Of a stretch of DNA of 64,000 nt, positions 354 through 63,600 are shown in pieces. The notes below the pieces were generated by a model. It did not search any database. It was not told the DNA's origin and saw nothing but the letters and a program-made list of their open reading frames with translations. The position numbers and the translations under genes are program-made. Source of the DNA: Scenedesmus sp. PABB004 (lineage: Eukaryota); the NCBI GenBank assembly GCA_014905635.1, contig JABVCE010000023.1:62001-126000 (forward strand). Reading direction: 5' to 3'. How positions within the stretch are numbered: the stretch's first letter is position 1; each line of letters starts with the position of its first letter.

Positions 354-1441
354 TCAGGGCGCGGCCTCGATCTGGAACGAGCGCGGGCCGCCGCCCTCGC
401 AGTGGATGTCCCACATGCGGTGCAGGAGGCGCTCCAGGTCGCGCACCCAGCGCTCGGTGTCAAAGAGCGGGCAGGTGAGGCGCGTGGCCTCGAGGCGCGC
501 GCGCAGCGCGCCGCGCGCGCCCGCGTCGCTGCCGAGCGCGACCGCGCGCTCCTCGTACTCCGCCTGGCTGCCCACGACCATCTCGGCGCCCAGGCCCGAC
601 GCGTGCGCGAGGCTCGCGGCGACGCGGCTCGCCATGCGCTCCATCGGCAGCGTGACCATCGGGCAGCCGCCCCAGAGCACGTCGCAGCCGGTCGTGTGCG
701 CGTTGCAGAGCGGCGTGTCGAGGAAGACGTCGGCCAGGCCGCTGCGCCGGATGTGCAGGTCCTTGTGCGCCACGTCGGTGAAGATGATGCGCTCCGGCGA
801 CACGCCCGCCGCCGCCGCCGCCGCGCGGATGTTGGCCTCGCCGTACGGCGGGAAGCGCAGCAGCCACAGCACGCTGCAACGACGCGTGCGGCAGGGCCCG
901 GCGGCGAGCGCGGCGGCGCGTCGGCGGGCGCGCGGCTGCGCGGCTGCTGCGCCGGCGCGGCGCGCGGCGGCGCGCGCCGCGGGGCGCGCACCTGTCTGGC
1001 ACGCGGTGCAGGATGCGGCACCAGGTCGCAAAGGTGTCTGGGTCGTACTTGTACAGCTGGTTGCTGCAGCTGAAGATCACGCGGTCCTCGGGCAGCCCAA
1101 ACTCGGACCGCCGCGGCAGGCGCGACTTGTCGAGCACCTCCCTGCGCGGCGGCAGACGCGGCCGGCCGGCCGCGCGCGCGCGCCGCGTGAGCACAGCGCC
1201 GCCGGCACGCCGCGCCGCGGGGGCCAGCACGCGCCCCCGCCGCCGCCGCCGCCGCCGCGCGCGCGGCGCCGCCCGCCTTGCGCGTGCCTGTGCGCGCGCT
1301 TGTAGTCGTTGACAAAGTAGCAGTGCGGCATGAGCGCGAGCGCCTCGCTGTAGCAGTGCGCCAGCTCGGGCGGCGACACGACCGCGTCGCTGATGAGGTA
1401 CGGCAGGAACGGCGCGCCTGCGTGTGTGCGTGCGTGCGTGC

Positions 1442-1491
<50 letters not shown>

Positions 1492-4400
1492 TGATGGGGG
1501 GGGACGATGTCAGGACGAGGGTCAGGATGAGCGCGGGGCGGCGCACGCCGCGCGGGCGCGGCGCGCCAGCGGGGCGGGCGCGCGCAGCGAGGCGCAGCGC
1601 GGGCGCCGGCGTGGGCGCGGCGGCGGCGGCGCACCCGTGGTCGCGGGGAAGCCCATGTAGGAGGCCTGCACCGGCGCGGGGCGCAGCGCGAAGACCTCGT
1701 TGCGCGCGCCCTTGGTGTAGCCGTTGAGGTTGACCGCGACGTGCAGGCCGTCGGACGACATGCGGCCCGCGATGTCGCCGAGCGGCCAGCCCGACACGTC
1801 GACAAAGTGCTCGGCCTCGGCCTCGATGCGGCGCCGCCACTCGCTGCCGTCGCTCGGGCTGAGCGCGTAGCAGAACACCTCGACGCGCCCGCCCGCCGCG
1901 TGCGCGCCAAACACGCCGCCCATGAGGTGGCTCAGCGGGTGGTTGCCAAAGTCGCTCGACACGTAGCCGACGCGCAGGCGCTGCCCCGGCGCGAGGCGCG
2001 CCGCGGGCGGGTGCGGCAGCGCCGGCAGGCCCAGCCGCGCCGCGCCGAGCGCGCAGTGCTCGGCGTAGCGCACGCTGATCGCGCGCGCGAGCTCCGCGCT
2101 GAAGGGGTAGGCCATGGCGTGGAAGGGCTGCACGCTCGGCAGCCGCCCCGCGCCGAGGTCGCGGCGCACCTCGGCCTCGAGCCGCGCGAAGAGCGGCCGG
2201 CGCTCGCCCCAGTCGCACACGCACTGCAGGCTGTGCATGTAGTTGGCAAACGCCTCGGGAAGTCGGGGCGCAGCGCGAGCGCGCGGCGGTACGCCGCGAT
2301 GGCGGCGTCGTGCCGCGCGGCGTCCTTGTACGCGCTCGCGAGGTTGGCGTGGCCCTCGGGGCTCTCCGGCTGCAGCAGCACGACCTGCTCGTAGCACGCG
2401 ATCGCGCCCAGCGCCTGGCCCGTCATCTTCAGGATGCCCCCGAGGTTGTTGTACGCCACGCCCACGCGCGCCGCGACGCCCGGCGGCAGCAGCGCCGCGG
2501 GCGGGCGGCTCGCCGCCATCGCCGCGAGGCCGCCGAGCAGGCCGCCGCCCGCGGCCGCCGCCGCGACGGCCGCCGCGGCCGCGCTCGCCGCGGGCGGCGC
2601 GAGCGCGCCGCCGCCGGCGCCGGCGCCGGCGCCGACGGGCGGCGCGAGCGCCGCGAGCTGCGCCGCCTGCGCCGCCTTGCTGTACTGGAGCTGGATGCAG
2701 GTGCTGTAGCACGCGATCGCCTCGTCGTAGCGCCCCGCCTCGCGCAGCGCGTTGCCGAGGTTGTTGTGCGCCTCGGGGAAGGCCGGCTCGATCGCGAGCG
2801 CCGAGCGGTAGGTCGACACCGCGGCGTCGAGCTTGCCCTGCTCGTACAGGACGCCCGCGAGGTTGCCGTGCGCGAGCGCGCAGCCCGGGCGCAGCCGCAC
2901 GACGGCGTCGAAGCACGCCTCCGCCTCGGGGCGGCGCTTCAGCTCCTTGAGCACCACGCCCATGCCCGTGAACGCGTCCGCGTAGCACGGCCGCAGGCGC
3001 ACCGCCTCCTGGTAGCACGAGAGCGCCTGGCGGCGGCGGCGGCGGCGCGCGGCGCGACGGCGGGCGGGCGGGCGGTGAGCGCGGCGCGCGCGTGGGGGCA
3101 CACGGGCAGCGCACCGCCGGGCCGCGCGGCCGCGCCGCGCGCCTGCATGTGCTCGCCGCCCTCGCGCAGCAGGTCGCCGAGGCCGCGCCACGCCGGCGCG
3201 TACGCGACGTCCAGGCGCAGCGCCTCGAGGTAGCACTGCTGCGCGGCGGGGCGGCCGAGCGCGCCCTGCGCGCGCCAGAGGTCGCCCAGGTTGTTGTGCA
3301 CGTCCACGAGCGCCGGGTTGACGCGCAGCGCCTGCGCGGCGGGGGACAGGGGCTTGAGAGTGCCATGCCGCGCCCGCTGCGCCGCGCTGCCGCCCTTCCG
3401 CCGCCGCCCCTCCGCCGCCGCCCCGCCGCGCCTGCATGTAGCAGTCCATGGCCTCCGGTATGAGTCCCTTTTGCACGAGCGCGCTCGCCATGTTGTTGTA
3501 GGCGTCGGTGAAGTAGGGCTTGAGCCGCAGCGCGCTCTGGTAGTACACGATGGCCATGTCGACGTTGCCGAGCTGCTGCAGCGCGTTGGCGAGGTTGGCG
3601 TGTGCCTCGGCGAGGCTCGGGTCGATGAGGATTGCGCGGTCGTTGTGCGCGATGCACTGCGCGTAGTCCTGCAGCTGGTAGCACGCCGCGCCGAGCAGCA
3701 GCAGCACGTCGGCGCGCCCCGGCAGCGAGGCGGACACCTGCGGCAGCGGCGGCGCCAGCGGGCGCGTCGGCGGGGCGCCGCGCGGCCGCTGCGCGCTGCT
3801 GTCGAGCCCGCCGGCGGCGCCTGCTCCCGCTGGTGGCGCTGCCGCCGGCGCGGCCGCGGCCGCCGGCGCCGCTGGCGCCCGCGACCGCCGCCTCCCCGCC
3901 CCGCGCGCTCGCAGCTCCCGCCGCCTCCTTCCTGCCGCCCACTGCCGCCCGCCTGCAGCCCGCCGCCTGCCGCCCGCCCGCACGCGGCTGCGCTGCGCCG
4001 GGCCCGCGCGCCCGCCCGCGCACGCACCGGCTGGCAGAGCGCGAGCGCGCGCACGTAGTTGCCGGCGCGGTACGCCTCGGTCGCCTCCTTCAGCAGCGCC
4101 TCCAGGCTCGGCGCGACGTCCGCGCCTGCGCGCGGGGCGGGGGCGGGGGCAGGGGGGGGGGGGGCACGCGTCGTGGGCCGCCGCCCGCGCGCGCTGCTGC
4201 CGCCGCCGCCGCGCGCCGCCGCCGCTGCCGGCGGCGCACGCTGCCGCCTGCGCGCCGCCGCGCCGCCGGCCCGCCGCTGCAGCTGGCGGCGCCGGGGGGC
4301 TCCCCACCTGCGCTGGGCGCCAGGGAGACGGCCTGCAGGTGCGGGAAGAGCTGCCCCGCATCGCCGCCCAGCGCCGCGGAGAGCGGCATCGGGAAGCTCG

Positions 4401-5392: not shown

Positions 5393-5428
<36 letters not shown>

Positions 5429-5927
5429 GCGGCGGGTGCACACACCGGTGTAGAAGCTGTACGCCGCGCGCAGCTCGGTGTGCTCCGGGTGGCCCAGGAT
5501 GCTGCTGGGCAGCGTGTAGAAGCTGACCACGCTCACCACGCCGCCGCGCGCCGCGCCGCCGTCGACGACGTACGTGTCGATCACGTACGGCCGCGGCAGG
5601 AACCTGCGGCGCCGCGGCGGCAGGCGCCGCGGCGGCGCGCGACATGACGTGACGTGGGCCCGCGCGGCGCGGCGGCCGGCGGCGCGCGCGCGGTGTGGGT
5701 GTGTCGCGTCGGCCGCACCAGTGCGCGACCTCTGGCTCGTCAAAGTGCTGCGTGAGCTTGAACTGGGCCAGGTGGCCGTTCAGCAGCGCGGTGACGGCGG
5801 GGACGTCGCCGCGCTCCATCGGGCGCAGCCCCGGCGTCGCCGGCGTGGGCGGCAGGCGGTAGAGCTTGATGGTCCGCGCCATGGTCATGCGCGGCTGCGC
5901 GGTTGGAGGGCGTTTGGAGGGCGTGTA

Positions 5928-6026
<99 letters not shown>

Positions 6027-6249
6027 AAGGGGGCGGGGTGTCGAGGGCCACGGTGCGAGCGCGCGCGGCAGCACACACACGCGGCGGCGGCGCGCCTGCA
6101 GGGAGGAGAAGCCCACGTCGATGAGCTTTTTGGGGTTGAGGCTGCGGTGCCAGTAGCGGCAGCTCGCCACGGGGCGCGGCAGCACCACGCCCGCCGTGTA
6201 CGCCGCCTGCCAGATGTCCTGCAGGTTCACGCGCCGCGTGATCTCCTGC

Positions 6250-6282
<33 letters not shown>

Positions 6283-7654
6283 TTGGGCGGGCAGCGGGGC
6301 GCGCGGGCCGGCGGCGGCGCGCCTCCCCGGCTCGCGCGCACCTTGATGAGCACCGGCGCGAGGCGTTTGCTGCGCAGCTTCTTGAGCACGCACAGGAAGT
6401 TGATCTCCACCGCGCGCACCGCCGCGCCGTTGGCCTGGCGAGCCGCGGCGCCGGCGCCGGCGCCGCGTGAGCCGCCGCGCGCCGCGCGGCGCCGCGCTGC
6501 ACGGCGCGCGCGTGTGCGGGCCCACGCGCGCGGGTTGCTTTGGCTGTGGTCCTGTGGGCCCGCCCACCCGTATGCTGGCTGGTATCGCGCTAATGAAGGC
6601 GACGAGCTTGCCGCTGCTCTTGACGCGCACGCCGACGTGCCAGTCCTTCCTGCGCGCGGCGCGGCGCGGCGCGGCTCGCCGCCGCGGCCTGCCGCCGCGC
6701 CGCGCCGCCGCGGCCCGCCGCCGGCGCGGCCTGCCGCCGCGCCGCGCCGCGCCGCGCCTGTGCCCCGGCGGCAGCAGCGCCCACTGCAGGAAGGCCGGCG
6801 AGTAGCTGAAGCGGAACATCGCGTCATCGTCCTCCACGTAGTTGGCGTGCAGCAGCGTAAACACCTGGACACCGCGCGCGGCGGCGGCGGCGCAAACGGC
6901 GCGGACGCTCGGCGGTGAGTGCGTGCGCGGGCGAGCGCCGAGGCGCGCGGCGGCGGCGCGCGGCGCCCCCGCAACGCACCTCGGCCACCTCCTTTTCGTC
7001 GCTGATGTTCACCTCGCACCACGTGAAGCTGCGGCGGGGGGGCAGCAGCGCGGCAGCGCGGCGGCTGAGCACGCCGCCGCAGGCGGCGCCGCCGCCGAGC
7101 ACACGCCGCCGAGCGCGGCCGCACCTGTCGGGCAGGCTGTACGGCTGCTGCCGCACGTCCGCCACCGTCTTGAGCGCGTCGATGGGCCCGTCCTCGCCCG
7201 CCTGCGGCGCCGCCGTGGGAGCGGGCGCGGGGGGTCTGCGGCGCCGCGCCAGTGCCGGGCAGCCGCACGCGCGGCCTGCCTGCGCCGCCGCTGCGCGCAC
7301 CGCGCTGCCGTCCTCCGTGAACTGCATCACGGGCTGCGTCTCCCAGAAGTCGTACTTCTCCTTGGCGTCCTTCCTGCGCCCCCGCGCCGCCGCGCCCATC
7401 GCCGCCAGCCTGCGCCCGGCGGGCGGCAGCAGCGTCGTCGGCGCGGGCCCCCCTGCCGCGAGCCCCCGCCGCACGCCAACGCCGCACAGACGCTCGCGCA
7501 GTGCCGGGCGCCCGCACCGGTCCATCAGGGCCGCCAGCGGCGGCGCCCCGCTCGCGCTGGGCTGCGCGAGCTGCTGCTCCTGCTGCTGCGGCGCCGCCGC
7601 GGGCTGCCCTTGCGACGAGGAGGCGCCCTCCGCGGCGGGCGCGTCGTCCGCCAT
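5086..7654 (-). CDS. NMT: Glycylpeptide N-myristoyltransferase, 11 exons
   Basis: Motifs [87 protein letters not shown] and [16 protein letters not shown], ending GLILL*. 10 introns, with GC donors at 6757 and 6095. Confidence 0.97.
5393..5426. repeat. 34-nt poly-C run (poly-G on the NMT sense strand) in the last NMT intron
   Basis: Directly visible. Confidence 0.9.
5933..6025. repeat. (GT)n microsatellite of about 46 units in an NMT intron
   Basis: Directly visible. Confidence 0.95.
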
Positions 7655-9710: not shown

Positions 9711-9741
<31 letters not shown>

Positions 9742-12168
9742 GTGCGCCGCCGCCGCCGCCGCCTGGCTGTCGGGCGAGGCGATGAGCCGCGTCATGTGGC
9801 TGTCGCTCAGCACGTCGTCGCCGTCCTCGAAGATCTGCTCCAGCATCTGCTGCAGCATCGCGCTGTCGTTGCTGCGCATGTCCTGCAAGATCGTGCCCGC
9901 GAGCGCGGGGCTGTCCGGCAGCGCCAGCCCCGCACCCGCCAGGCCCGGCGCGCCGCCGCCGCCGGCGCCGGCGGCGCCGCCGCCGCGCGGGCCGGCGCCG
10001 CCGGCGGCCGCCCAGGTGCTGCCGGGGAAGGGCAGCGGCAGCGCGCTGCAGCCGCCGCCCTCCGTGCCGGGCTCGGCCTTGGGCAGCACCGCGCCGCGGC
10101 CGCCGCCGACCGCGAGGTTGGCCATCGCCGCAAACGGCGAGCTCGGCCCGCCGCCGTCGTCGAGCCCGTGCCACGCGCTGAAGCTCGGCGTGCGGCCGTC
10201 GCCGAGCAGGCCGCCGGGCAGGCCCGGCACGACGGCGCCGGCGTGCACGCCGCCGACGCGGCCGTAGCCGCCGCCGCCGCCGAGCGCGGGGCTGCCCTCA
10301 TCCATGACCGCGAGCCCCAGCAGCGCCTCGCCGCCGCGGCCGCCCAGCGTGGGCGTGCCGACGGCGCGCCCCGGGGCGGGCCCATGACGCCGCCGCCGCC
10401 GCCGAGGCCGCCCGGCGCCGCGCCCGGCATGCTGCCCAGCAGCGGCGAGCCGGGGACGCCCGGCCCCAGCGCGCCCGGGTGGACCACGGCGGTCGGGGAG
10501 TAGGAGGCAGACAGGATGTGGTGCTGCCCGCTCAGCACCGCCGGCGACGCCGCCGCGCGCCGCCGCTTGGACAGCGGCGGGCTCTGCGCGCGAGGCGAGG
10601 GCAGGCGAGGAAGAGGGGGAGGGGGGGGGGGGTGAGCGGGCGCGCGGCGGCGCGGCACGCGCGCGCACGGCGGCGCGAGGGGGCCGCGCCGCACCTGGCC
10701 CGCGACGTCGGCGCAGTCGCCGCCGCGCCTGCGGCGGTCGTGGTGGTGCGTCGCAGCGCTGGCGGGGCTGCCGCTCAGCGGCTGGTCGGTGACGTCGGAC
10801 GCCCAGGCCGAGCCGGCGGACGACGTCGACGCCGCGCGCATGCTCGACGGCGACCCGCTGGCGGCGGGGATACCCGGCCGCCCCCGCACGGGGCCGCCAG
10901 CGTGCTCGGGCTTGATCTCCAGCAGCTCCTCCAGGCTCACGTTGACCTCCAGGAACCTGCGCCGCCGCGGGCGGCAGGGGAGCGCCGGGCGGGTGAGCAA
11001 ATATGAGCGCGGCCGCGCGCTGCAGGCGCCCGCGCGCGCGGCCTGGTCCGCGCCGCGCCGCTGCCAGCTGCGTCGCGCCGCCGCCCGGGCGCGCACGCGC
11101 CTGTTGCGTATCTCGGGCAGGCGCGCGCCCCACTTGAGGTTGCCCACGAACAGGTTCTTCACCGCGCGGTTGGTGCGGCCCGGCAGCAGCATGGAGATGG
11201 CCTTCCAGTTGTTGCCGTATCGGTGCTGCGCCTGCGCGGCGCGCGGCGCGGCAGCCCGGCGGGCGGGCGGGCTGAGCGGGCGTCCCGCGGGCGCCCGCCG
11301 GGGGTGCCCGCCCGCTGCCCGCGCCGCCGCTGGCCCGCGTCCAGCGCAGCTGCTCGGCGGGGGTGCCGCCGCTGCCGGGTCGGCGCACGCAGCGAAGCTG
11401 GCGGCCGGCTGCCGGCCAGGCCGCGCCGCGAGCTCCCCGCCCGCCGGCAGCGCCCGGCCCATTCGCGGCCGCCGCGACCGCACCTGCACCACCACCGCCA
11501 CCTCCCACTCGGTGAAGGGGCTCTTGCGCGGGTGCTCGATCTCGGGGCTGAGGAAGTTGCGCCACCTGCGGCGCGGCCGGGCGCCGGACGCAACGTCGGC
11601 GCCCGGCTGCGCGGCGCGCTGCCGCCGCCGCCGCCGCCGCCGCGGGAGCCCCGGCCCCTGCTGCGGGAGTCCGGCCCGGCCGCGGGCCAGGCTTGCGGAG
11701 CCTCTGCGGGGCGCCTGACGCCCGCCGGCGCGCGCGGCGCGGCTGCCAGCGTCGCCGGCGCTGCTCCGCAGGTACAGCTGCCGCCGCGAGCCCGCGGCGC
11801 CCGCGCGGCGTCAGGCGCGTGAGACGTGGCGCACCTGTCGCTGCAGCTCTTGCTGCTGCGCCCCGGGACGTCGTTGGCGACCGTGGCCCAGGCGCGGTCG
11901 CCAAACTTGGCCACCGCCTGGCGCAGCAGCTCATCCTCCTGCAGCGAGATGCCGCGTGGCAGCGCAGGGTGGCGCGTGGGTCACGACGCGCAGCTGCGCG
12001 CGCCCTCGCGGGGCGCCCACGCGCCGCCGGGCGCGCGCAACTGCATCGCACTCGGCAGTCCCGGCCCCCGCGCGCGCCGGGTCCCTGACGCGGCTGGTCC
12101 GGCCCCGGGCTGCCGAGACGCACCTGCTCCGTCCAGGCCGACCGGCTCTGCGCGCTCGTAAAGTGCAT
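8815..12168 (-). CDS. R2R3-type MYB transcription factor with a long low-complexity C-terminus, 6 exons
   Basis: Spliced N-terminus WTEQ|EDELLRQAVAKFGDRAWATVANDVPGRSSKSCSDR|WRNFLSPEI..KSPFTEWE..|AQHRYGNNWKAISMLLPGRTNRAVKN has MYB repeat tryptophan spacing. GC donor at 11100. Apparent 1-nt deletion near 10373. Confidence 0.88.
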
Positions 12169-12943: not shown

Positions 12944-15168
12944 CTACGTGGTGGGCGCGGCCAGCTGCCCCGGCGACGGCGACGGCGGCACCGGCGACGA
13001 CGTCTGCTGCGACTGCTGCGACTGCTGCTGTGACTGCTGCGACTGCTGCGGCTGCTGCGCAGCGGCGACGGCGCCCGCGCCCGCGCTGGCGCTCAGCGGC
13101 CGGTCGCGGGAGCGGCCGCCCGAGCCGGGGCCGCCCAGCTTGGCGGCCATCAGCTCCGCGCCGCTCAGCCGGCCCAGGCTGCCGCTCGCGGACGACGGCG
13201 ACGGCAGGCTGCCCGCGCCGGCGGCGATGGCGAGGCCGTGCCCGCCGCTGTGCGTGCGCATGCTGTTCCAGGACCGCCGGCTGAGGTCGCCGCTGCCCGC
13301 GCGGCTGGCGCTGCGGCTGTAGGACGCCCAGTTCCTGCGCCAGCCGCGGCGGCAGGACGTTTGGGGGGGGGGGGGGGCGGTCAGCAGGGGGGTGGGGCAA
13401 GCGGCGCCGCGGCGCGCCGCCGCGCCAGCGCAGGCGCGGGCCGGCGCGGGGCGCACTCTGGCGGCAGCTCGTGCGGCGCGAGGCCCATGTCGCGCAGCGT
13501 CAGGCCGCGGCCCTCGAGCTTGGCCTCCAGCGCCTTGTAGCTGCTCGTGAGCGCCTCGAGCTGGCGCTGCAGGCGGTTGACGATGTTCTGTGCGCCGCGC
13601 GGCGCGCGGCGCGGGCGTCAGCGCAGGCGCGCGCGCGCGGGCGTGCGCCGCCGCCGCCGCCGCCGCCATGCCACCGCCACGCCGCCGCCGCCGCCGCCAC
13701 GCCCCCGCCATGCCGCAGCCGCCGCCGCCGCACCTCCTCCTCCATCTCCATCGCCGCCTCGAGCTGCACCTTGTCGCGGTTGAGCCGGTCCACCGCGCCG
13801 CTGAGCTCGTGCACGGCGCGCTGCAGCTCCGCGCGCTCGCGCTGCAGGCCGCCCTTCTCGGCGCCCAGCTTCTCCAGCTGCTTCTGCAGCTTGTTCATGA
13901 TGTACTCCTGGCGGGAGTGAGGGAGGTGTGAGGTGCGAGTGAGGAGCGAGTGAGGAGTGAGCGAGGAGCGCAGCAGCACTGCAGTACTGCGCCGCAGCAG
14001 GCAAGCCGGACGGCAGGGCGGCGCCGCGCGCAGGGGCGCGCGCAGGCGCGGTGCGGCCGCGCCGCGCGCCTGCTCCGCCTCGAGCTGGTTCTCCAGGTCC
14101 ACCTTCTCCTTGTGCAGCTTGGCCTTCTCGCCCGACAGCTGCTCCAGCTGCGCGCGCGGCGCGGTGCAGCACGGCGCGGGCCCGCCGCGCGTCGGGCGCC
14201 GCGCGACCGCGGCGGTCGCCGCCGCCGCCGGGGCGCGCGTCTGTGCGTGCGTGCGCGCGGCGCGCGCCGCGTGCGCGCCTGCTTGCAGAGCTTGTTGACC
14301 ACATACTCCTGCTCCGTCTCGAGCCGGCTCTCCAGGTCCACCTTCTCCTTGATGAGCTGGCGCCCGCCGGGGCGGCGCGGGCCAGGGCGGGGCGCACGGC
14401 GGCGGCGGCGCGCGCAGCGCGGTCGGCGGCGCCGCGCCCGCGGCGCTCGGCCTGCACGCGGCCCGCGGCGCTCTGCCTGCGCGCGGCCGCGCGTGCCGCG
14501 CGCGCGCGCGCCCCGCACCTTTTCCAGCTTCTTCTGCAGCGTGTTGGTCAGAAACTCCTCCTCCTGCTCCACCTGCAGCGCGCAGCGCGCAGACAGCAGA
14601 CAGCAGAGCGCCGCGTCAGCCGCGGCCACGCGGGGGCCCTCCCGCCGCGCAACGCTGCGCCTGGCGCCGCGGCCGCGCCCGCCGCCGGCGCGGCGGTCAC
14701 CTCCGTCGCGAGCTGCTGCTTCTCCTTCTTGAGCTGCTCCAGGCGCTTCATGAGCTTGTTGGTGATGTACTCCTCCTCCTGCTCCACCTGCGATTGCTGC
14801 GGCCGCGCGCGGGGCCGGGCGGCGGGCGCGGGTGCGGGCGCGCGCCGGCAGCGGCGCGCCGGCAGCAGCGGCGCGCGCCGCGGCCGCCCCGCGGCGCCCC
14901 GCGCGCGCGCCCGGCGCCGCACCACCGCCAGGTTTTGCTCCCGCGTGCGCCTCAGCTCCTCGCTTAGCGCGCCGGAGACCTTCTTCTCCTTGTCCAGCTG
15001 CGCGGCGCGGGCGCGGCGCGGGCAGCAGCGGCGTCGGCGGCGCGCCCGCGCGCCGCCCGCGCGGCCGCGCCGCCCGCCCTGCCGTCTGCGCACCGCGGCC
15101 TGGAGCCTGGTGGCCTCCGCCACCAGCTCCTCGCGGCTCATGCGCTCCAGGGCGCACGCGTCGAGCAT
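12944..15168 (-). CDS. CCDC6/DUF2046-like coiled-coil protein, 9 exons
   Basis: Repeated units VEQEEEYITNKLMKRLEQLKKEK, VEQEEEFLTNTLQKKLEK, EQEYVVNKLCKQ, EQEYIMNKLQKQ and EEENIVNRLQRQ are typical of the CCDC6 family. GC donors at 14278 and 14069. Confidence 0.85.
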
Positions 15169-16949: not shown

Positions 16950-18481
16950 ATGGCCGCCGCGCAGGAGGCCTACTTTGTGGGCCGCAGCGAGCTGCTGGCC
17001 TGGATCAACTCCACGCTCTCGCTGCGGCTGGGCAAGGTGGAGGAGGTGCGCGCCGCGCCGCGCCGCGCGGCGCGCCGCATCGCGCAGCGGTTGCCGAGCG
17101 CGCCGCTCCCCCCGCCGCGCCGCGCGCCAGACCGCCAACGGCGCGGTGGCGTGCCAGCTGCTGGACGCGCTGTACCCCGGCAGCGTGCCGATGAAGAAGG
17201 TCGACTTCAACGCCAAGAACGACTACGACTGCATCGCCAACTACAAGGTCCTGCAGGACGTCTTTAACAAGCTCGGCGTCGACAAGGCGCGGCGTGGCGG
17301 CGGCAGCAGCGGCAGCAGCGGCAGCGCGCGGCGGGCCCGGGCAGCCGCGCACCGCGCGCCGCGCCGCGCGCGCGCGCCGCCCGACGGCCGCGCGCGCGCG
17401 CGCGTTGCGCAGCACGTGGAGGTCGCCAAGCTCGTCAAGGGCCGGCCGCTGGACAACACGGAGTTCATGCAGTGGTTCAAGGCCTACTGGGACACCGCGA
17501 CGGGCGGGCAGCCCATCGACGACTACGACCCCGTCGCGCGTCGCGCGCTCTGCAAGACCGGCGCCGTGCGCGGCGCGGGCGGCGCCGCGCCCGCGCCGCG
17601 CGCCGCGCCTGCGGGTGCGCGCCGCGCGCGGCCCCCGGCGGGCGGGAGGGGCGGCGCGCCGCCGCACGCGCGCGCCGACGCGCCCGCCGCGCCGCGCCGC
17701 CGCGCGGCAGGCGCCGGCGCGGGCGCGCTGCAGCGCCGCATCGCGGGCGCGCCCAGCTACGCGGCCAAGTCGCCGGCGCCCGCGCCGGCGGGGGGCCGCG
17801 GCGCCGCGGGCGCCGCCGCCGCGGCCGGGGGCAGCCGCAAGAAGCTCATCGGCGCCGCCGGCAGCGGCCGCGCGAGCGCCACCAACGACGCCGACACCAT
17901 CGAGCGCCTCCAGGAGGAGGTGGGCGTGCTGGGCGCGCGCCGCGCCCCTCCCCCCGGCAGCGTCCTGCCGCGTCCCCGCCCCTCCCGCCCCGCCCCGACG
18001 CGCGCCGCCGCTGCGGCCGCCGCCGCGGCGCAGGTCGCGAGCTGGCGGTCGTCCGCTGAGACAGCGGCCAAAGAAAAGGACTTTTACTACAGCAAGCTGC
18101 GCGCGATCGAGCTGCTCTGCAACACGCCCGGCATCGCCGGCTCGCCGGTGCGCGGCGCGCCGGCGGCGGCCGCCGCCGCGGGGCCACAGCCCGCGTGCGG
18201 CGCCGCCGCTCACGCCGCGCCGCCGCCGCCGCGGCCGCCGCCGCCAGGTGGCCAAGGCGGTCGAGGACATTCTATATGCGGCCACGCAGGAGGAGGGCGA
18301 GGCCAGCCTCGCGGCGGCCATCGCGGAGCTCGAGGCGGCCGAGGCCGCCGGCGCGTGTGGCGCCGAGGCCGACGCCGACGCCGGCGCGGCGGCGCCGCCG
18401 CTCGCGGCCGAGGGCAGCGACGAGGGCAGCCAGCCCGCGCCGGCGCCGCTGCTGCCCGAGGCGGCCGTGCCGGTGTGCTGA
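16950..18481 (+). CDS. EB1: Microtubule end-binding protein EB1 (CH + EBH domains), 6 exons
   Basis: AYFVGRSELLAWIN, GAVACQLLD, VPMKKVDFNAK, NYKVLQDVFNKLGVDK|HVEVAKLVKGRPLDNTEFMQW and EKDFYYSKLRAIELLC. GC donor at 17287. Confidence 0.96.
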
Positions 18482-21352: not shown

Positions 21353-24300
21353 ATGGCGTGTAGGGCTCTGTACACACTGGCGCTGCTGCTGATGGCAGCT
21401 AGCAGCGCTTCGGCCGCAGGTGCGCGCGCGGGGAGCGGCTGGCTCGGCGGGAGCCGCCCCGCGCCGCGCGCGCGTGCAGCAGCAGCCCGCCCGGCGCTCG
21501 CCCGGAGCTGACCCCAGCTCCAGCTGCTAGACGAACGCCTCCAACCGCAGCGGCGAGCTCACTCTACCCGCGCCGCCCGCCAACAGCCGCCGCAGCAGAC
21601 GCGTGCGCGCCGGAGGCGCTCCCCGCCCGCACCGCCGGCCCGCCGCGCTTGCCCCCGCTCGCGCCGGGGGTGCGGCCCAACTTTATGGTCATCCTGACCG
21701 ACGACCAGGGCTGGGACGACATCGGCCTGCACCACGCGAGCGGCCTGCTGTCGACGCCCAACATCGACCGCCTCATCCAGCGCGGCGTGATGTTCAACAA
21801 CTACTACGTCACGCCCCAGGCGAGCTGCGGCGCATGATGCCCGCACCAAGGCTCGCGGCGCGGCGCGCGCGGGCCCCGAGCTGCGTGCCTGACGCGCCGG
21901 CCGCCGCCGCCGCCGCCGCCACGCAGTGCGCGCAGTCGCGCGCCGCGCTGCTCACGGGCCGCTCGTTCGTGCGCACGGGCACGATGCTGGTGCGGCCGGC
22001 GCGCCGCTGCCCCTGCCGCCGCTGCCGCCGCCGCCGCCGCACTGCCGCGCCAGCGCGCCGCGCCACGCCGTGCCGCGCCAACGCGCCGCGCCGCTGTGCC
22101 GCCGCCGCCGCAGGTGCACGGCGGGTACGACTTCATCAACAGCGCCGAGGCGACCGCCGGCAACGTGATGAAGGACGCGGGATACGACACCGCCCACTTT
22201 GGGAAATGGTGCGGGGGGCACGCGCGTGCGTCCTCGCCTGCCGCCGCTGGCAGCTCCGCGCAGGCGCGTGGCCGGGGGCGCGCCACCGCCAAACCCCGCC
22301 CGCGCGCCGCCGATCCCCGGCCGCGCCGCGCAGGCACAACGCGGACGTGGCGGGGTACGAGCCCTGGTTCACGGGCTTTGACGAGAGCTTCAGCGCGCCG
22401 GGCATGAACGCCGGGCCCGCGCGCCACAACGGCCTCTACATTAACAGCACCGGCGTCGGCGAGGAGGCGCTGCTGTCCAACATTCTCGACTACCTGCGCC
22501 CGGTGCGCACCCCGGCGCACCCCCAGCGCCCGCCGGCGGCGAGCAGCGGCCCGCGGCCCGCGCGCGCGCGCGCCGCCCGCGCCGAGCCCCGCCCGCGCCG
22601 CCGCCGGCCGCCCCGCGCGCCGCCGCAGCGCGCCGCCGCGGCCGCCGCGGGCGAGCTGCACACGCCGTTCTTCGCCTACTGGGCGCCCAACGGTGCGCGC
22701 GCCCGCCTGGCAGCTGCCTGCGCCGCGCCGCCGCGTGCGCACGCGCGCCAGCCCACGCGCGCGCCGCCGCCGTCGCCGCGCCGCCGCCGCCGCCGCCGCC
22801 GCAGCGATCCACTTTGCGCGCGAGAACGCGCACGGCACGCGCGTGCGCGTCTACCCGGCCGAGTACCGCGCCCTCTACAACGGCCCCAAATACGCCGGCA
22901 TCGCGCAGGGCACCCTCGACGTGCGCGCCGCGCCGCGCCGCGCCGCCGGGGCCGGGGCGCGCCGCGCCGCGCCGCCGCTCGCGCTCGCCCACGCCGACGC
23001 CGCCCCCTCCCTCCCGCGCCGTGCCGTGCCGTGCCGTGCCGTGCCGTGTGTGCGGCGCGCAGACGTGGGGCATGATCAGCTACCTCGACGCGGTGCTGGG
23101 GCAGTTCTTCGACTTCCTCGACGCCAACCCCGCGCTCGCGGCGACCACGTACGTGCTGCTCAGCAGCGACAACGGCCCCGCGCTGCTCGGCGACGAGGAG
23201 CGCGGCGCGGCGCGCCTGGTGCGGCGGGCGCCGTGGACGCCGCGGATGCCGCGGGCGCGCGGGCGCGTGGGCGCGGCCGGCGCGGCCTGTTAGTTGACCC
23301 CGCCCCGCCGCGCCGGCGCCGCGCGGCGCCGCCAGACGCGCATGCCGAGCGGGGCGCAGGGCGTCAAGCACTCGCTCGGCGAGGGCGGGATCCTCAACTT
23401 CATGGCCGTCACCGGCCCAGGTGTGCCCGCGGGCGCGGTCGATGGCACGCTGCTCGACGTCACCGACGTCCTGCCCACCGTCGCCGCGCTCGCCGGCATC
23501 CCGGCCAACGGCACCGACCACCTGCCCTGGGACGGGCTGAGCTTTGCAAACCTGCTGATCGACGCCGGCGCCGGGACGGCCGGCGCCGGGACGGCCGCCG
23601 CGGCCGCGGCGCGCCCCGCGTCGCACGCGCGCCTCGCCGCCGCGGCGCAGTCGCTCCCGGCGCCGGCGCAGCAGCAGCAGCCGCAGCAGCAGGCGCGGGG
23701 CGACGGCGACGCCGCGACGGCGGCGCGCGCCGCGCTGGCCACGTCCGCGCAGCGCGACCGCATGCTGTTCAAGCTCAGCCCTCACTGCTGGGACGCTGAC
23801 GCCGTGCCGGTGCTGGGCCCGGACCGGTGCGGCGCGCGGCGCGGCGCAGCCTGCCGCGTGCGGGCCCAGCCTCAACGCGAGGGCCGCGCGGCCTCTGCGC
23901 GCGCGCTCACGCGCCGCCGCCGCCGCCGCCGCCGCGTCCAGGGAGATCGTGCGCCCGCAGCCGCTGCTCGACTACGACACCGGCGGCGTGCCCAACGTCG
24001 TGTACGCGGCGATGCTCCCGGGGCTGCGCCGGCACAACCCCGGCTTTGAACCCTGCATCGCCGTGCGCTACAAGGACTGGAAGTGGCTCGGCTCGACCAA
24101 CAAGGTCTACCGGTGCGCCCCGCAGCCTGCGCCGCAGCGCGCGAGCCGCACGCACTGCGACGCAGCACGCGCCGAGCAGGCCCGCGCGGGGCCCGCGCGG
24201 GGCCTGCGTGCGCCGCGGCGCCCACGTCCGCCGCCGCCGCCGCCGCCCGCGCGCCACCGCAGGCTCGCCGGCGGGTCTCACATTGAGCTCTCCTGCAACG

Positions 24301-41380: not shown

Positions 41381-42721
41381 TCACGAGACGTTCCACGCGG
41401 GGCCCGCGAGGTCGCCCGGCACCTTGTGGTCCCCCGGCACCGGCCGCGCCTCGTAGACCGCCTCCACAGCGCGGCGCTGGCGCTGCGGGCGGCGCGGCGC
41501 AGCGCGGCGCGCGTGGGCGTGGGCGGTCAACTCTGCTGAAGCGAGCGAGCAGCGGCGACGCGGCGGGGGCGCGGCGGGCGGGCGCGCGCCCCCTCACCTC
41601 TGAGAACTCCCCCTTCAGGCCGACAAAGAGCAGCTCAGACTGCTCCGACCCAAAGGTGGACGGGAAGTGCAGGTCCAGGCTGTGCACGCCGTTGAAGCGG
41701 GCGACCCTGCGGCGGGCAAGCGCGCGTGGGCGCCGCCGTCGCGGCGGGCACTGCGCCGGGGGCGGGGCGGGCTGCGCGGGCACGCAGCCGCGGCGGCGGG
41801 GCTCACTGCGTGGGGTACTCCAGCGTCCCGTTGGCGTTGACCTCCTGAAGGTCCCACTCCTGCGCGGCGGGCCGCGGCGCGGGCGCGCGCCTCGGCGGCG
41901 GCGCAGCTGCGGACAGCGGCGGCGGCGGCGCGGCGCGGCGGCGGCGCAGCTGCGGACAGCGGCGGCGGCGGCGCGGCGCGGCGGCGGCGCCGCGCCTGCG
42001 TGGGCTGCATGCTGGCGATCGCAGCAAAGTCCAGGTCATCACGGTTGATGAACCTGCCGCGCAAAAAGGCAGCCGCGGTCGCCGTCACCGCGCGCGGAGC
42101 GGTCGGGCGGCCGGGCGCGGCCGCCCAGGCGGCGCCGCGCGCCGCGCGCTGCTCACGCGCGCATGCGGCTGGGCGCGGCGCCGCCGGCGCCGCCGATGAT
42201 GCAGATGGCCTTCAGCTTGGCCGCGCCGTCAAAGCTGCGGCGCGTGGCGGGCGGGGCGCGTGGCGACGAGCTCGCGGCGGCGGCGGCGGCGGCGCTGCGG
42301 GGCGGCGGCGGCGCTGCGGGGCGGCGGCGGCGCTGCGGGGCGCGCACGGGATGTGCAGCAGCAGCTCGCAGTCGTCCGGGTCGCTGCGCAGCGGCACCGC
42401 GGGCGGCTCCAGCGGCGCGACGCGCGCGGCCCACGCGCGGAAGACGTGCCTGCAGCTGCCCTCCACGTCCTCGTTGAGGCAGCGCACCTGGCGGCGGCGG
42501 CGGCGACGCGCGCGCGGCGGGGGCGCTCGGGCGGCGCCGGCGCCGCTGCCGCCGGTGCCGCTGCTGCCGCCGCCGGTGCCGCTGCTGCCGCCGCCGGTGC
42601 CGCTGCGCCGCTGCGCGCGCACGTGCGCCAGGTCGATGTGCCTGTACAGCGAGTAGGCCGGCCCGCAGTCGGCCGCCTCGCAGTCGTGGTCGTGCGCGCA
42701 GCAGGCGCCGGCGGGCGGCAT
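41381..42721 (-). CDS. PITH-domain protein (PITHD1-like), 7 exons
   Basis: CAHDHDC..YSLYRHIDL, CLNE, LRSDPDDCELLLHIP|FDGAAKLKAICIIG, FINRDDLDF, EWDL, LEYPT, RFNGVHSL, FVGLKGEF and YEARPVPGDHKV. GC donor at 41995. Confidence 0.92.
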
Positions 42722-50771: not shown

Positions 50772-50810
<39 letters not shown>

Positions 50811-52779: not shown

Positions 52780-52810
<31 letters not shown>

Positions 52811-54679
52811 GGCCAGCAGGACTCCGCGGCGGTGGACGACGGCGGCGGCGGCGGCGGCGACGGCGGCACGCTGGCGTACGACCTGCTGGTCGGCGCCGAC
52901 GGCGCGGGCAGCGCCGTGCGCGGCGCGATGCTCGGTGCGCTGCCGGGCATGTCGGTGACGCGGCTGCGCTCGCCCGTGGCCGAGCTGGAGTACAAGGCCT
53001 TCCATGGCCTGCCCTGGAACGACGACATCGCCGCGCTGCTCCCGCGCTACGCGCCGCCCCCGCCGCCGCGCGGGCAGGAGGGCGCTGACACCGCCGCCGC
53101 CGCCGCCGGGTGCGCGCGCGGGCCCGCGGCGCGTCGCCCCGGGCGCATGCAGTGGCAGCAGCCGCGCCGCGCCGCGCCGAGGCGCCGCGCCGCGGCCGCG
53201 CAGGCCCGCCAACGCGTGCGGCGGGGCGGACCCGGGCATGACCTTTTTCGCGTTCAACAACCCCCAGCCGGGGCGGCCCAGCCCGGGCAGCATCACGCTC
53301 TACCTCAACGCAGGCAGGGCTCAGCAGCAGGGCTCAGCAGGGCTCAGCGGCAGGGCTTAGGGGCTCCAGGGTTTGGGGCCGCGCCGAGCCGGCGGCGGGG
53401 CGCCGCCTCCTGCGCCGCGCCGCGACGCCGCCCCGCGCGCGCGCGGGCCGCACGCCCGCGCCGCCGCCGCCGCCGCCGCCGCCGCAGCCGGCACCTGGAG
53501 CGGCACGGTCTATCAGCCGCCCGGCCGCTACGCGGCCATGGCCGGCGACGCTGCGGCGCACGAGGCGGCGGTGCGCGAGTTCACGCCGCCGGGGTTCCCC
53601 GAGGCCTGGGTGCCAGCGATGGCGCGCCAGATGGCGAGCATCGGCCCCAGCAGGCGCGCGCGGGGCGGGTCGCAGGCGCGCACGGGGCGGGCGGGGGCCT
53701 GGCCGGCGCCGGCGGCGGGCGGGGCGGGGCGCCGCGCGCCGCGCTGGCGCGACCCAGCCCGCCGCCGCCGCCGCCGCTGCCGCCGCCGCTGCCGCGCCGG
53801 GCGCGCAGAATCAACCCCATGCAGCTGGTCAGCCAGCTGGCGGCGCCGCAGCTGGGCGTCGTCCTGCTGGGCGACGCGGGTGGGCGGCCCGGCCGCTGAG
53901 GCGCGGCGCGGCGCGGCCCGCGGCGCGGCCCGTGGCGCGGCGCCCTCACGCGGCGCCGCCGACGCCGACGCTGCGCCGCGCGCGCGCGGGCAGGCCACAA
54001 CGTGACGCCGCAGATGGGTCAGGGCTGCAACAGCGCCCTGGAGGACGCCGCGCTGCTGGGTGACGCGCTGCGCCGCGCCGACTACGACACCGCGGCCGCG
54101 CTCGAGAGCTTCCAGCGCCGCCGCATGCCGCAGGTGGGCGCGGGGGCCGGCGGCCGCCGCTCCGCCGCGCCGCGCGGCGCCGCGAGGGTGCTGCTCGTGC
54201 CCGCTGCTCGCACGCGGCGGCGCGCAGGTGCACGCGCTGCAGCGCATGGAGGAGGAGAACAGCTGGGTGCGGCGCCCCGCCGACCTGCTGCGCGACCCGC
54301 CGGCCAAGACCCTGGCGCGCGTGGTGCGCGGGCGGGCGCCGCCGCCGCGTGGCCCGGCCGCCGTGCACGGCCGGCCTGCCCCGGCAGCGCGCGCGCGCGA
54401 TCTGCCGCCGCAATGCGCCGCCGCACTGCACCGCCGCTGCAGGCGTGGGTGAGCTTCTTCTGCTTGCTGCCGCTGGCGCGGCTGGTGCCGGGCCTGCGAC
54501 GGGCTGTGCACGCGAGCCTGTTTCAGACCATCATGTCAACGACTGTAGGCTACGACCGGCTGCACGCCGCGATCCGCGCCGCGCCGGCGGCGCTCGCGGC
54601 GCTCGTGTGGGCGCTGGTCAGCGCCGGGGGCTGGCTGGCCGCGCGCGCGTGGGCGCTGGCCGCGGCGGCGCTCGCGTGA
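51718..54679 (+). CDS. FAD-dependent monooxygenase (group A; kynurenine 3-monooxygenase-like), 11 exons
   Basis: VVVGAGPAG, VHVLERR, YDLLVGADGAGSAVR, VVLLGDAGHNVTPQMGQGCNSALEDA and a C-terminal hydrophobic segment. GC donors at 53314 and 53654. Confidence 0.9.
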
Positions 54680-59759: not shown

Positions 59760-59761
59760 GC

Positions 59762-60561: not shown

Positions 60562-60692
60562 TAGCCCCGGCGCTCCGCAGCCGGGCGGCCAAGGGCGCGG
60601 CGTGCCGCGGCGGCCGCCCAAAGTCGGCCCGCGCAGCGTGCACCGATTGCACGCGCGGCGCCGCGCCGCGCCGCCCGCGCCCGCCCCGGACA

Positions 60693-63600
60693 TCATCGCC
60701 TGCCCGCCGAGGGCCCGGCCGCCAGCAGCCCGGCCGCCGCGCAGGCGGCCGCGAGCGCCCAGCGCGCCGGCGCGCGCGCCGCGCCGGCGGCGCCGTTGCT
60801 CGCGCCCGCGCTCGCGCGGCGCGCCGCGATGCTGCTCGGCCGCGCGCCGCCGCCGCCGGCAGCGCCGCCCGGCGGCGCCGCCGCGACCTGCAGCGCCGCG
60901 AGCGCCCAGTTGGCCTCGCCCTTGACGCAGCTCGCGTCGACCGCGCTGTCGGGGCGCGTCGTGCCAAAGGTGCCGGTGAGGATGTTGGTCTTCATGTAAC
61001 ACTTGCCCAGGCTCGTGACCACGTACTGGCACGCAGGCTCGGCGGCGCACTGGCCCTTGCAGAACACGACCGCGCCCGCGCCCGTGGTGATGGTGATGTA
61101 GTCGACCATGCGCACGCCGTCGCCCGCAAAGTCATAGTTCTTGATGCAGTACATCCCGCCCGCGTCTGCGGCGTGTGCGTGTGTGCGTGTGTGCGAGTGG
61201 GGAGAGGCGGGCAGGGGCCGGCGGTGTCGGCGGCGCTCGCGCACGAGAGGCGGCGCGCGGCGGAGCGGCGAGCACGCGCGCGGGCCGGCGGCGCCGCACC
61301 GGGGTTGCCAAACTTGTTCCAGTCGGCGGCGCTCGCGAAGCAGAGGCCGTACGTGCCCGGGTCGGCGAGCGACGTGTTGAACTGCGCGCGGCGGCGGCGG
61401 CGGTGGCGTCGGCGGCGCGGCGCGCGGCCCCGCCGCCGGGGCAGGGGCGGCGGCAGCGAGGCGGCGCGGCGGCGGTCGCGGCCGGGCTCACGTTGACGCT
61501 CTTGAGCAGCGTGCACGCGCCGGTCTCGCCCATCGAGTAGGCCACGCACGCGCCGCCCTCCTCGTCGCACTTGGCCGCGCACTGGGTGAGGCCCTCGTCG
61601 CCCATGGGCACCTGGACCTTTTTGAGCGCCGCGCCGCCGACGTTGTACTGCTTGATGCAGCGGTACGCCTTGGCGCTGCCGTTGAGCCCGACCGGCGCGA
61701 TCGCGGCGACGCTCGGCGTCTCGACGCCCGTGTTGACCTCGGGCGACGGCAGCGCGTAGTCGAGCTGCCCGCCAAAGGTGACCCACGCGTCCTGGCCGTT
61801 GAAGCAGGTGAGGTCGACGTCGGTCGACGGCCCCGTGCTGCCGTAGAGGCCGCCGAGCGCGTGCATTTTGAGGTAGCACGTCGACGTCGCGCCCGCGGCG
61901 GGGGCCTTTTTTAGCAAGTAGTACTGGCACCCCACCGTGCCCTTGCACGTCGTCGCGCACATGCTCGGCGTCATGCCAGCGATCTCGGTGTTGGCCGTCT
62001 GCGGGCGCGGCGCGGCGGACGCGCGGGCGCGCGGCGCGGCGGCGTGAGCGGGCGGGCGCGAGCGGGGCGCGTGAGCGGCGGCGCAAGCGCGCGGCGCGGC
62101 CCGCGCGCGCGCGCGCGCGCCTGCACGGGCGCCTCGGCGTCGCCCGAGCCCGCGGGGTCGCCCTTGAGGTCGTAGCCGCGCAGGCAGAAGAAGCCGCTGC
62201 CCACCAGCTGGGCTGCACGGCGGCGGCGGCGCCGCGGCGCGCGGTGTCGCCGCGCGCGCGCCGCGCGCGTCCCCGCGCGACCACCCCTCCCGCGCTGCCG
62301 CCGCCGCGCTGCGCCGCCCGCGCACACCCTAGACCCGCCGCACCGTTGCGCGCGCCAAAGTCGAGCCAGTCGCTCGCGCTCTTCATGCACAGCCCATCCA
62401 TGGTCGCGTCGGCGGCGCTGCTGTTGGTGTTGAACTCCTTCATGAGGAAGCACTTCTTGCCGGTCTGGCCAAAGCCGGCGCAGGCGCTCGAGAGCGCGTT
62501 GCACGCGACCGCGCACGCGGTCACGCCCTCGTCGCCGGCGGGGACCTCCTTCTGGCTGTGGATCTTGCCGCCGACGTTGTACTGCCGCAGGCAGTAGTAC
62601 CGCACCGCCTGCTGCACGACCGCGTCGTCGACCGCGGGCTCGGGCTGGGGGTTGTCCGCGAGCGCGTCGCTCACGTTGCGCGGCCGCGGCGCGTCGCCGG
62701 CCGCGGCCGCGGGCGCGGCCGCGGCGGCAGGCGCGGGCGCCGCCGCATCCGCCGCCGCCGCGGCCGGGTCCGCCTCCGCGGGCGCCGCCGCGGCCGCCGC
62801 GCCGGCGGGGAGCTTGTCGACCAGGTTGAAGACCACCTTTGCGGTGATCACCTGGTCCGCCTCGGGCTGCAGGCTCGCGACGCTGTTCACCTCGGCCGTG
62901 CCCTTGAGCATGGTCACCTGCACGTTGAGCGTGTGCTTGCCCTGCGCGGCCGCGAGAACGCGGGCGCGCACGGCGTCGGCGGGCGGCGTCGGCGGGCGGC
63001 GCCGGGGAGCAGCCGCCGCCGGGGCTGCTCGCGCAGCCCCTCCCTCCCTCCCTCGGTCCGCGCGGCGCAGCCCGCGGCCCGCGCGGCCGGTGCCGGCGCC
63101 GCACCGGCGCGAGCGTGTCGAGCGTGGTGAGGCTGATGTAGGGCGGGCCGGCCAGCGGCATGGTCGCCTTCTTGTCGATGCCGCCGTCGATGTTGTACGT
63201 CACGTCGTACCCCGCCGGCGCCGCGACGGTGGTCAGGCACGTCGCGAGCAGCTGCTTCCCGCCGCCGCCGCCGCCGCCGAGGGGGCGAGCGCGGCGCCGC
63301 CGAAGCCGGCGCCGCCGGCCCAGCCGAGCGCGGCGCCGAGCAGCGCGCCGCCCGCCTGCGCCAGGCGGCGGCGCCCCGCCTTGCCGGGCAGGCAGTCGGC
63401 GGGCACGCACTCGCGCTTGCTGAACAGCGGGTGCTCCGGCTGCACGTACAGCTTGGGCGTGGGCTTGGCCGCGAGCGTGACGGTGTTGAGCGAGCTCGTG
63501 TCCTCGTTGCCCGCCGCCACCTGCGCCTTGCGCGTCCACGCGTCGGGCACGTTGGCGGTGTCCGGGGGGAAAAAGTTGACGGTCAGCGCGGGGCACGCTG

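Follow-up and report, generated by a model that had tools for sequence, protein, structure and literature searches.

Gene content and base composition of the window

The present study concerns a 64-kb stretch of DNA (contig JABVCE010000023.1, positions 62,001 to 126,000; hereafter, the window), along which intron-rich eukaryotic genes are tightly packed. A preliminary description had listed 21 introns in these genes that begin with GC instead of GT (GC donors) and had proposed that the recognition of donors was shifted in this lineage. As judged from sequence and homology, the GC donors were confirmed to be real. They are probably ordinary GC-AG introns that became frequent in a genome of extreme base composition.

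The genes were named by a Pfam scan of each exon, which was performed on 112 exons predicted by a hidden Markov model (HMM) of codon usage that was blind to splice sites (the splice-blind HMM). The genes named were a SEC-type O-GlcNAc transferase (OGT), N-myristoyltransferase (NMT), a Myb gene, DUF2046, a Pex22-like gene, EB1, a sulfatase, and a MORN-PIP5K gene, followed by a short-chain dehydrogenase, a reprolysin-like protease, PITH, Urm1, V-ATPase subunit c, an FAD monooxygenase-like gene, and a PAN-domain gene. The closest homologues of the OGT exon were those of Tetradesmus obliquus (86% identity), Monoraphidium, and Raphidocelis. OGT and NMT adjoin in the window (366-7659, - strand), and the locus tags of their Tetradesmus obliquus homologues are also adjacent (OEZ86_014614 and OEZ86_014613), which indicates that the gene order was kept. 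Because of these OGT homologues and the adjacency of OGT and NMT in Tetradesmus, the host is, on sequence grounds, a green alga related to Sphaeropleales (Chlorophyceae).

The G+C content was 76.5-82.5% in each 4-kb bin of the window and approximately 79% overall, and the introns had a mean G+C content of 86%. Sphaeropleales genomes mostly have a G+C content of approximately 56%, with Monoraphidium and one Scenedesmus strain exceeding 70% in the account consulted (PMC12571836). The window exceeds these values and also the 66-70% of published algae rich in GC-AG introns. If the window is typical of the genome, this would be an exceptionally GC-rich eukaryotic nuclear genome.

GC donors in the window

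All 21 of the coordinates in the preliminary description read exonic AG followed by GC, seven on the + strand and 14 on the - strand (Table 1). Eleven were pinned by homology or repeat register, nine were recovered by an exon-chaining parser, and one, 63379, is ambiguous. The earlier statement that most of these introns start with GCGCG also held (15 of 21 sites). The removed pieces were 86-201 nt in length and had an intron-like composition. The acceptors, which were picked by the parser or by homology, were all AG and mostly (C/G)CAG/.

Table 1. Introns with GC donors in the window. In the text, each site is named after the first base of the intron, which is the higher coordinate on the - strand. 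A slash marks the exon-intron boundary. Negative values are distances from the best pair in a junction scan.
Position	Strand	Gene or region	Donor	Evidence
1142..1287	-	OGT (SEC-type)	CAG/GCACGC	homologues contiguous across junction (tblastn); best GT-AG -37
3027..3142	-	OGT, TPR region	CAG/GCGCGC	no frame-compatible GT-AG pair; parser-recovered
3332..3431	-	OGT, TPR region	CAG/GCGCGG	-1.7 from best of 1667 pairs, best in second scan; no GT-AG pair
5895..6095	-	NMT	CAG/GCGCGC	-1.0 from best of 1762 pairs; best GT-AG -13.4 (7 homologues)
6650..6757	-	NMT	CAG/GCGCGG	-0.6 from best; best GT-AG -58 (7 homologues)
10957..11100	-	Myb-domain gene	CAG/GCGCGT	parser only; best in-phase GT 5 nats worse; no homology pin
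13908..14069	-	DUF2046 coiled-coil gene	CAG/GCGCGC	splice-blind exon end <=1 nt; parser; GT 20 nats worse
14148..14278	-	DUF2046 gene	CAG/GCGCGC	splice-blind exon end <=1 nt; parser; GT 12 nats worse
17287..17412	+	EB1, CH domain	AAG/GCGCGG	upstream exon ends at 2qjz_A residue 79, downstream exon starts at 80
21820..21926	+	sulfatase, directly before active-site exon	CAG/GCGAGC	top of 1187 pairs; best GT-AG -23 (4 homologues)
24552..24685	+	sulfatase	CAG/GCGCGG	top of 1766 pairs; no GT-AG candidate (4 homologues)
28533..28640	-	MORN-PIP5K linker	CAG/GCAGGG	parser only; no in-phase GT; region unconserved
28723..28833	-	MORN-PIP5K linker	CAG/GCGCGC	splice-blind exon end <=3 nt; parser; GT 18 nats worse
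30228..30339	-	PIP5K gene, within MORN repeat	AAG/GCGCGC	exact 23-residue MORN register over junction; no GT alternative
31795..31930	+	short-chain dehydrogenase	GAG/GCGCGT	junction at 3rd5_A residues 109/110; no GT alternative
33574..33659	+	gene without Pfam match	CAG/GCACGC	splice-blind exon end <=1 nt; parser; GT 10.5 nats worse
41860..41995	-	PITH-domain gene	CAG/GCGCGG	parser-recovered; no GT alternative
53314..53487	+	FAD-monooxygenase-like gene	CAG/GCAGGG	parser only; flanking splice-blind frames agree in phase; no GT alternative
53654..53808	+	FAD-monooxygenase-like gene	CAG/GCGCGC	splice-blind exon end <=1 nt; parser; GT 15 nats worse
61999..62120	-	PAN-domain gene	CAG/GCGCGC	splice-blind exon end <=1 nt; parser; GT 7 nats worse
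63255..63379	-	PAN-domain gene (possible GC-AG intron)	AAG/GCGGGG	ambiguous

The 11 sites that were pinned independently of any splice model were 1287, 3142, 3431, 6095, 6757, 17287, 21820, 24552, 30339, 31795, and, more weakly, 41995. The pins were of two kinds: the spliced product was collinear with a homologous protein or a solved structure, or an internal repeat kept its register. At 1287, the top-scoring pair in the junction scan (1283/1138) was a 4-nt slide of 1287/1142, which was likewise GC-AG and gave an equal intron length. The spliced product at 3142 was exactly collinear with the transcript-derived homologue P0003. The Pfam NMT profile had a gap at 68-73, which corresponds to the six codons leading to 6757, and the residues flanking 21820 were contiguous in sulfatase homologues. 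Residues 2-38 of the exon downstream of 31795 aligned to 111-138 of 3rd5_A, which was a weak match (E = 0.16). At 41995, the upstream exon ended at position 106 of the PITH profile (also weak, E = 0.13) and the next exon started at 127, a spacing that fits to within 1 residue. The preliminary description had regarded the EB1, dehydrogenase, sulfatase, and NMT sites as pinned by conservation, and this was borne out by 2qjz_A (79/80), by 3rd5_A (109/110, weakly), and by the junction scans, respectively.

The nine sites recovered by the parser without a homology pin were 11100, 14069, 14278, 28640, 28833, 33574, 53314, 53654, and 62120. The Pfam coordinates at 14069 were uninformative; the coiled coil slips. 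The PIP5K exon had no homologue at E <= 1e-8, and, thus, 28640 and 28833 carry no homology pin. Pfam and PDB searches with the small exons of the FAD-monooxygenase-like, DUF2046, PAN, and unnamed genes gave no usable coordinates.

Regarding 63379, the parser preferred a second AG/GC at 63355, and the stretch does not contain any GT. The splice-blind HMM joined two exons of the PAN gene with a 1-nt offset at 63258 (- strand), inside a Gly/Ala-rich, (GGC)n-like stretch, around which the GC content at one codon phase stayed at 98%. The change of frame may equally be due to a 1-nt frameshift of the assembly near 63258 in a sequence that is read through, and, thus, this site is ambiguous.

Tests of the sites as donors

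GC dinucleotides numbered 27,640 on both strands of the window. For 15 of the 21 sites, the splice-blind HMM had a 3' exon end at a distance of no more than 4 nt, and the remaining six adjoin exons that this HMM missed or shortened. The heptamer AGGCGCG occurred 81 times on both strands, and 12 of these occurrences were within 4 nt of a splice-blind exon end, whereas 0.64 were expected (p = 2e-12). When the first base was C, G, or T instead (951 occurrences), four were found at such exon ends vs. 7.5 expected. The corresponding values for GGTGCG were 28 of 155 vs. 1.2 expected. The enrichment of GC donors at splice-blind exon ends depends on exonic AG.

Junction scans considered all donor/acceptor pairs within +-36 nt, with any dinucleotides, and aligned the spliced peptide to homologues (seven for OGT, seven for NMT, and four for the sulfatase). 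At the seven sites scanned, the GC-AG pair ranked at or near the top, except at 3142, and the best GT-AG pair was far lower or absent. Ten GT introns of OGT, NMT, and the sulfatase served as controls. In nine of these, GT-AG scored 0 to -15 from the best pair, with the best GC-AG pair 7-32 units below GT-AG. The tenth control, which lies near 4027 where conservation is poor, had values of -22.7 for GT-AG and -33.6 for GC-AG. The outcome was unclear for a gap in NMT near 7156.

The exon-chaining parser combined coding log-odds, donor and acceptor matrices, and a prior on intron length. With first-pass pooled matrices, its score was 3665 when only GT was permitted and 4052 when GC was also allowed (47 GC donors, 22 of which followed exonic AG). 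Controls in which GG, GA, CC, or CG was allowed instead scored 3772-3838, with 18-31 'donors', one to four of which followed exonic AG. With matrices trained on GT donors, the scores were 3839 for GT only and 4050.5 with GC (43 GC donors, 19 after exonic AG), while the controls with the same four dinucleotides scored 3819-3889, with one to five 'donors' after exonic AG. Allowing GC therefore gained 211-387 log-odds units vs. 173 at most for the control dinucleotides. The parser recovered 19 of the 21 sites under both matrix settings, missing 1287, for which it chose 1299, and 63379. When the acceptor was fixed, seven of the 21 sites had no in-phase GT within 45 nt. At the others, the best GT was 5-20 nats worse, despite the prior advantage credited to GT.

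The parser also proposed 27 GC donors beyond those in Table 1. We did not count these, which mostly lacked exonic AG and were as numerous as the noise of the control dinucleotides. Among them, the candidate at 2224-2276 was a false 53-nt 'intron' bridging a frameshift near 2258, and that at 32664 overran the stop codon that apparently ends the dehydrogenase gene. A nucleotide-level splice HMM with retraining was discarded after it produced 240 'introns', many of which were 1-28 nt in length, and the exon-chaining parser was used in its place. Hard expectation-maximization with one donor per gap assigned GC to 28 of 87 donors and erred both ways (4054 for 4027; 1299 for 1287); its output was solely used as starting matrices.

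Rate and anatomy of the donors

The window contained 20-21 GC donors and approximately 95 GT donors, giving 17-18% of introns with GC. This rate and the counts of sites were obtained from one 64-kb window with gene models built without transcripts. The figure of approximately 18% in the preliminary description (21 of approximately 118 introns) was thus reproduced. Its statement that GC donors always follow exonic AG, which many GT donors do not, was also supported: exonic AG preceded 21 of 21 GC donors vs. 36 of 95 GT donors (Fisher p = 3e-8). The median intron length was 126 nt for GC donors and 122 nt for GT donors.

The GT donors (n = 95) had C (0.53), A (0.44), and G (0.82) at -3 to -1, and G (0.95), C (0.74), and G (0.95) at +3 to +5. 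The corresponding frequencies for the GC donors (n = 21) were C (0.81), A (1.00), and G (1.00) on the exon side and G (0.81), C (0.81), and G (1.00) on the intron side. The consensus sequences were G/GTGCG(C/G) and CAG/GCGCG(C/G), respectively. The core of +3G, +4C, and +5G is common to GT and GC donors, and both depart from GTAAGT at +3, +4, and +6; therefore, the core is not a special property of GC introns.

The canonical U1 5' arm is ACUUACCUG. The number of matches to CAG/GTAAGT, out of nine, was 5.14 for GC donors and 5.05 for GT donors. Because exonic AG was invariant and the consensus matches were equal in the two classes, the +2 pair lost by GC donors is made up on the exon side, which is the known compensation rule. 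The GC donors (GCGCG, GCACG, GCAGG, and GCGAG) were also compared with the U12-type donor consensus, /ATATCC (PMC3033335), and none resembled it. A search for small nuclear RNA genes gave no Rfam match at the gathering threshold in the window or in seven related loci.

Related OGT loci

Ten metagenome loci with related OGTs were compared with the window by placing their introns on the homologue P0003; this comparison covers one gene. Three of the loci, L005, L006, and L007 (68-71% G+C), clearly represent one lineage. At P0003 position ~169, these three loci had AG/GC(G/A), whereas L003 (51% G+C) had GT after the same exonic TACCAG. At ~648, they had AG/GCGCG, while L001 (64% G+C) had GT at 647. 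They also had AG/GCGCG at ~507 and ~706, where no intron was mapped in the lower-G+C loci. At 732, GT was found in L005, L006, and L007, in the lower-G+C loci, and in the window. Position 775 corresponds to the window intron at 1287, which has a GC donor; L006 had GT at this position, and no intron was mapped in the lower-G+C loci. GC donors among the introns of the lower-G+C loci (50-64%) numbered 0 of 13 in L001, 0 of 5 in L003, and 1 of 9 in L002, the last being doubtful.

Within this gene, GT and GC alternate at the same intron positions, and the GC donors turn up in GC-rich genomes. The comparison of orthologous introns with lower-G+C relatives suggested in the preliminary description thus gave, for OGT, GT at shared positions where the GC-rich loci have GC. 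L005, L006, and L007 belong to a second GC-rich chlorophyte lineage with AG/GCGCG donors in at least 3-6 OGT introns, and, therefore, the trait is not limited to the organism of the window.

Interpretation of the GC donors

We consider it probable (approximately 85%) that the GC donors of the window belong to ordinary U2-type GC-AG introns, which are tolerated only after exonic CAG and which were multiplied by the strong drift of the genome to G+C. A change of T to C at intron position +2 would be tolerated only in the presence of exonic C-3, A-2, and G-1. The match on the exon side would keep the total complementarity to the canonical U1 5' end equal to that of GT donors. The high rate would then most simply reflect a strong AT-to-GC substitution bias, by mutation or biased gene conversion, that acts at a position dispensable to the spliceosome in an otherwise strong site. 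We infer that the listed sites are actually spliced, that the U1 of the host has a canonical 5' end, and that substitution bias is the cause.

Several points weigh against this explanation. The junctions in the window were inferred and not observed in transcripts of this organism, and the rate of GC donors rests on one 64-kb window. A search of sequencing runs for words of the window listed no RNA run and a single DNA run, a freshwater metagenome that contained 0.07 of the words. Support for 10 of the 21 sites depends on coding statistics, and two of the 11 pins are weak (E = 0.13 and 0.16). Two GC-AG pairs offset by 4 nt are indistinguishable in the scan at 1287. The GC-AG pair at 3142 was outscored by the best non-canonical pairs, by 11.4 on the average of seven homologues and by 5.3 in a second scan. 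The 27 further GC donors from the parser, most of which lacked exonic AG, arose at approximately the control rate, and the parser alone is noisy. Furthermore, a highly conserved OGT exon contains a 1-nt frameshift near 2258 (2250-2265, - strand), across which the homologues run uninterrupted; therefore, errors instead of introns may underlie some of the frame changes, possibly including that at 63379. Near 2258, one C seems to be missing from a run of C, which may be an assembly indel or a real lesion.

The frameshift near 2258 is also one ground for suspecting that many of the GC donors are artefacts of mapping, with the true donors being nearby GT or with frame changes arising from assembly indels. 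It was bridged by a false 53-nt GC 'intron', and 63379 may be alike. GC dinucleotides are ubiquitous at 79% G+C, and the parser found 18-31 false 'donors' with any control dinucleotide. However, 11 sites were pinned by homology or repeat register, with GT alternatives that were far worse or absent, and the enrichment at exon ends needed exonic AG. In the parser, the controls gave 1-5 sites after AG vs. 19-22 for GC. The excised pieces also had the lengths (86-201 nt) and composition of introns. We regard it as very improbable that many of the donors are artefacts. Regulation is a further alternative, under which the GC donors would be kept weak for the control of intron retention or alternative splicing and would not be a neutral by-product of base composition. 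In human, nematode, and Arabidopsis, genes with alternative splicing have been reported to be enriched in GC donors (PMC2490688), and intron retention is described as frequent in Emiliania, in which GC donors are in the majority (PMC4028052). However, no feature of the window bears on regulation, and the lengths, acceptors, and consensus-match strength of the GC introns equal those of GT introns. Moreover, these introns interrupt sequences for conserved domains in housekeeping genes (OGT, NMT, and EB1), and their retention would break the protein. We consider this alternative unlikely.

The preliminary description had favored a shift in donor recognition, perhaps with altered U1 or U6. The descriptive part of this proposal stood: there is a local consensus, (C)AG/G-Y-G-C-G, and GC donors need exonic AG. 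In contrast, an altered U1 or U6 is not required. Under that proposal, the spliceosome of this lineage would have changed so that G-Y-G-C-G together with exonic AG is read by altered contacts of U1C/U5 or by a variant form of the U1 5' arm or of the U6 ACAGAGA box. The departure of both GT and GC donors from GTAAGT at +3, +4, and +6 is in its favor, and Iwata and Gotoh left base modification or proteins of the U1 small nuclear ribonucleoprotein open as explanations for high GC-AG rates (PMC3033335). However, the match to the canonical consensus was equal for GC and GT donors (5.14 vs. 5.05), as ordinary compensation predicts, and the conserved positions are the paired -2, -1, +1, and +5. In Aureococcus and Micromonas pusilla, two algae in which 22-40% of introns are GC-AG, the putative U1 carries the canonical 5' end, AUACUUACCUG (PMC3033335). 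We consider a changed spliceosome quite unlikely. We give as little weight to the more specific form of this proposal, in which recognition of the 5' splice site has moved to (C)AG/GYGCG through changes in the U1 5' arm, U6 ACAGAGA, U1C, or Prp8, T and C are nearly equivalent at +2 given exonic AG, and GC donors are selected instead of being tolerated mutations.

Comparison with known systems

High GC-AG rates in GC-rich algae are already published, and the window is a further case of a known phenomenon. Iwata and Gotoh (2011, PMC3033335) reported GC-AG shares of 39.6% in Aureococcus anophagefferens, 22.2% in Micromonas pusilla, and 7.7% in Chlorella sp. As in these algae, which include green algae, a high G+C content in the window is accompanied by a GC-AG share of many percent with the AG acceptor kept. 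The question of an altered U1 was also raised by these authors, who found its 5' end to be canonical in Aureococcus and Micromonas pusilla. In contrast to their cases, the window is from a lineage related to Sphaeropleales, its G+C content is 79% vs. 66-70%, and its rate comes from one 64-kb window without transcripts. The strict rule of exonic AG and the GCGCG core, which were found for the window, were not met in the part of their article used here (PMC3033335). A search of one literature library, confined to main texts, found no paper giving GC-AG rates for Sphaeropleales.

In Emiliania huxleyi, approximately 56% of donors in a curated set were GC, and nine GC junctions were verified by reverse transcription PCR (RT-PCR) (Feldmesser et al. 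2014, PMC4028052). Similar to the window, this is a GC-rich alga with common GC donors, which its authors ascribed to genome G+C, and predictors that assume GT err (PMC4028052). However, GC donors are the RT-PCR-verified majority in the reported Emiliania data (approximately 56-60%), whereas those of the window are a minority of approximately 18% known from sequence alone. Pelagophytes were reported to have 14-17% GC-AG introns (bioRxiv 10.1101/2024.10.30.620910). Emiliania and the pelagophytes represent haptophyte and stramenopile lineages, whereas the host of the window is a green alga.

In animals and plants, ordinary U2-type GC-AG introns account for approximately 1% of introns. Apart from +2, their donors were described as closer to the consensus than GT donors, which compensates for the C at that position (PMC2490688), and the correlation between genome G+C and splice-site G+C was reported to be weak across kingdoms (PMC7072748). 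The introns of the window resemble them in that the rest of the donor compensates for +2C and in having the acceptor and length of GT-AG introns (PMC2490688, PMC7072748). However, the rate in the window is approximately 15-20-fold higher. Moreover, compensation in the window is on the exon side (C-3, A-2, and G-1), while +3 to +6 is GCG(C/G), as in the local GT donors, and not AAGT.

The present results are of use for the annotation of this and related genomes, and their general interest is modest. Gene predictors restricted to GT would mis-model approximately one-sixth of introns in this organism and its GC-rich relatives, and conserved genes, among them OGT, NMT, EB1, and the sulfatase, would be broken in the models. 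With the window, the series relating genome G+C to GC-AG frequency gains a chlorophycean lineage, the G+C of which is more extreme than that of the published cases. The local rule, namely obligatory exonic AG with a GCG core common to GT donors, fits compensation at a canonical U1 rather than new machinery. The reason why some GC-rich algae, and not their close relatives, have many GC-AG introns is a puzzle that was posed in 2011, and the window does not open a new question.

Other features of the window

A long (GTGC)n/(GT)n microsatellite (1418-1492) lies within a GT-AG intron of OGT (1418-1634). The largest exon of the FAD-monooxygenase-like gene (52625-53050, + strand) encodes a run of glutamine followed by a run of glycine, between weak matches to the FAD-binding domain.

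The usual active-site motif of sulfatases is C-x-P-x-R. The motif in the sulfatase of the window (21927-21989, + strand) is C-A-Q-S-R, with Q at the position of P. All four of the full-length sulfatase homologues examined had C-(A/S)-Q-(S/T)-R at the active-site position, and the Q seems to be a trait of the subfamily and not an error.

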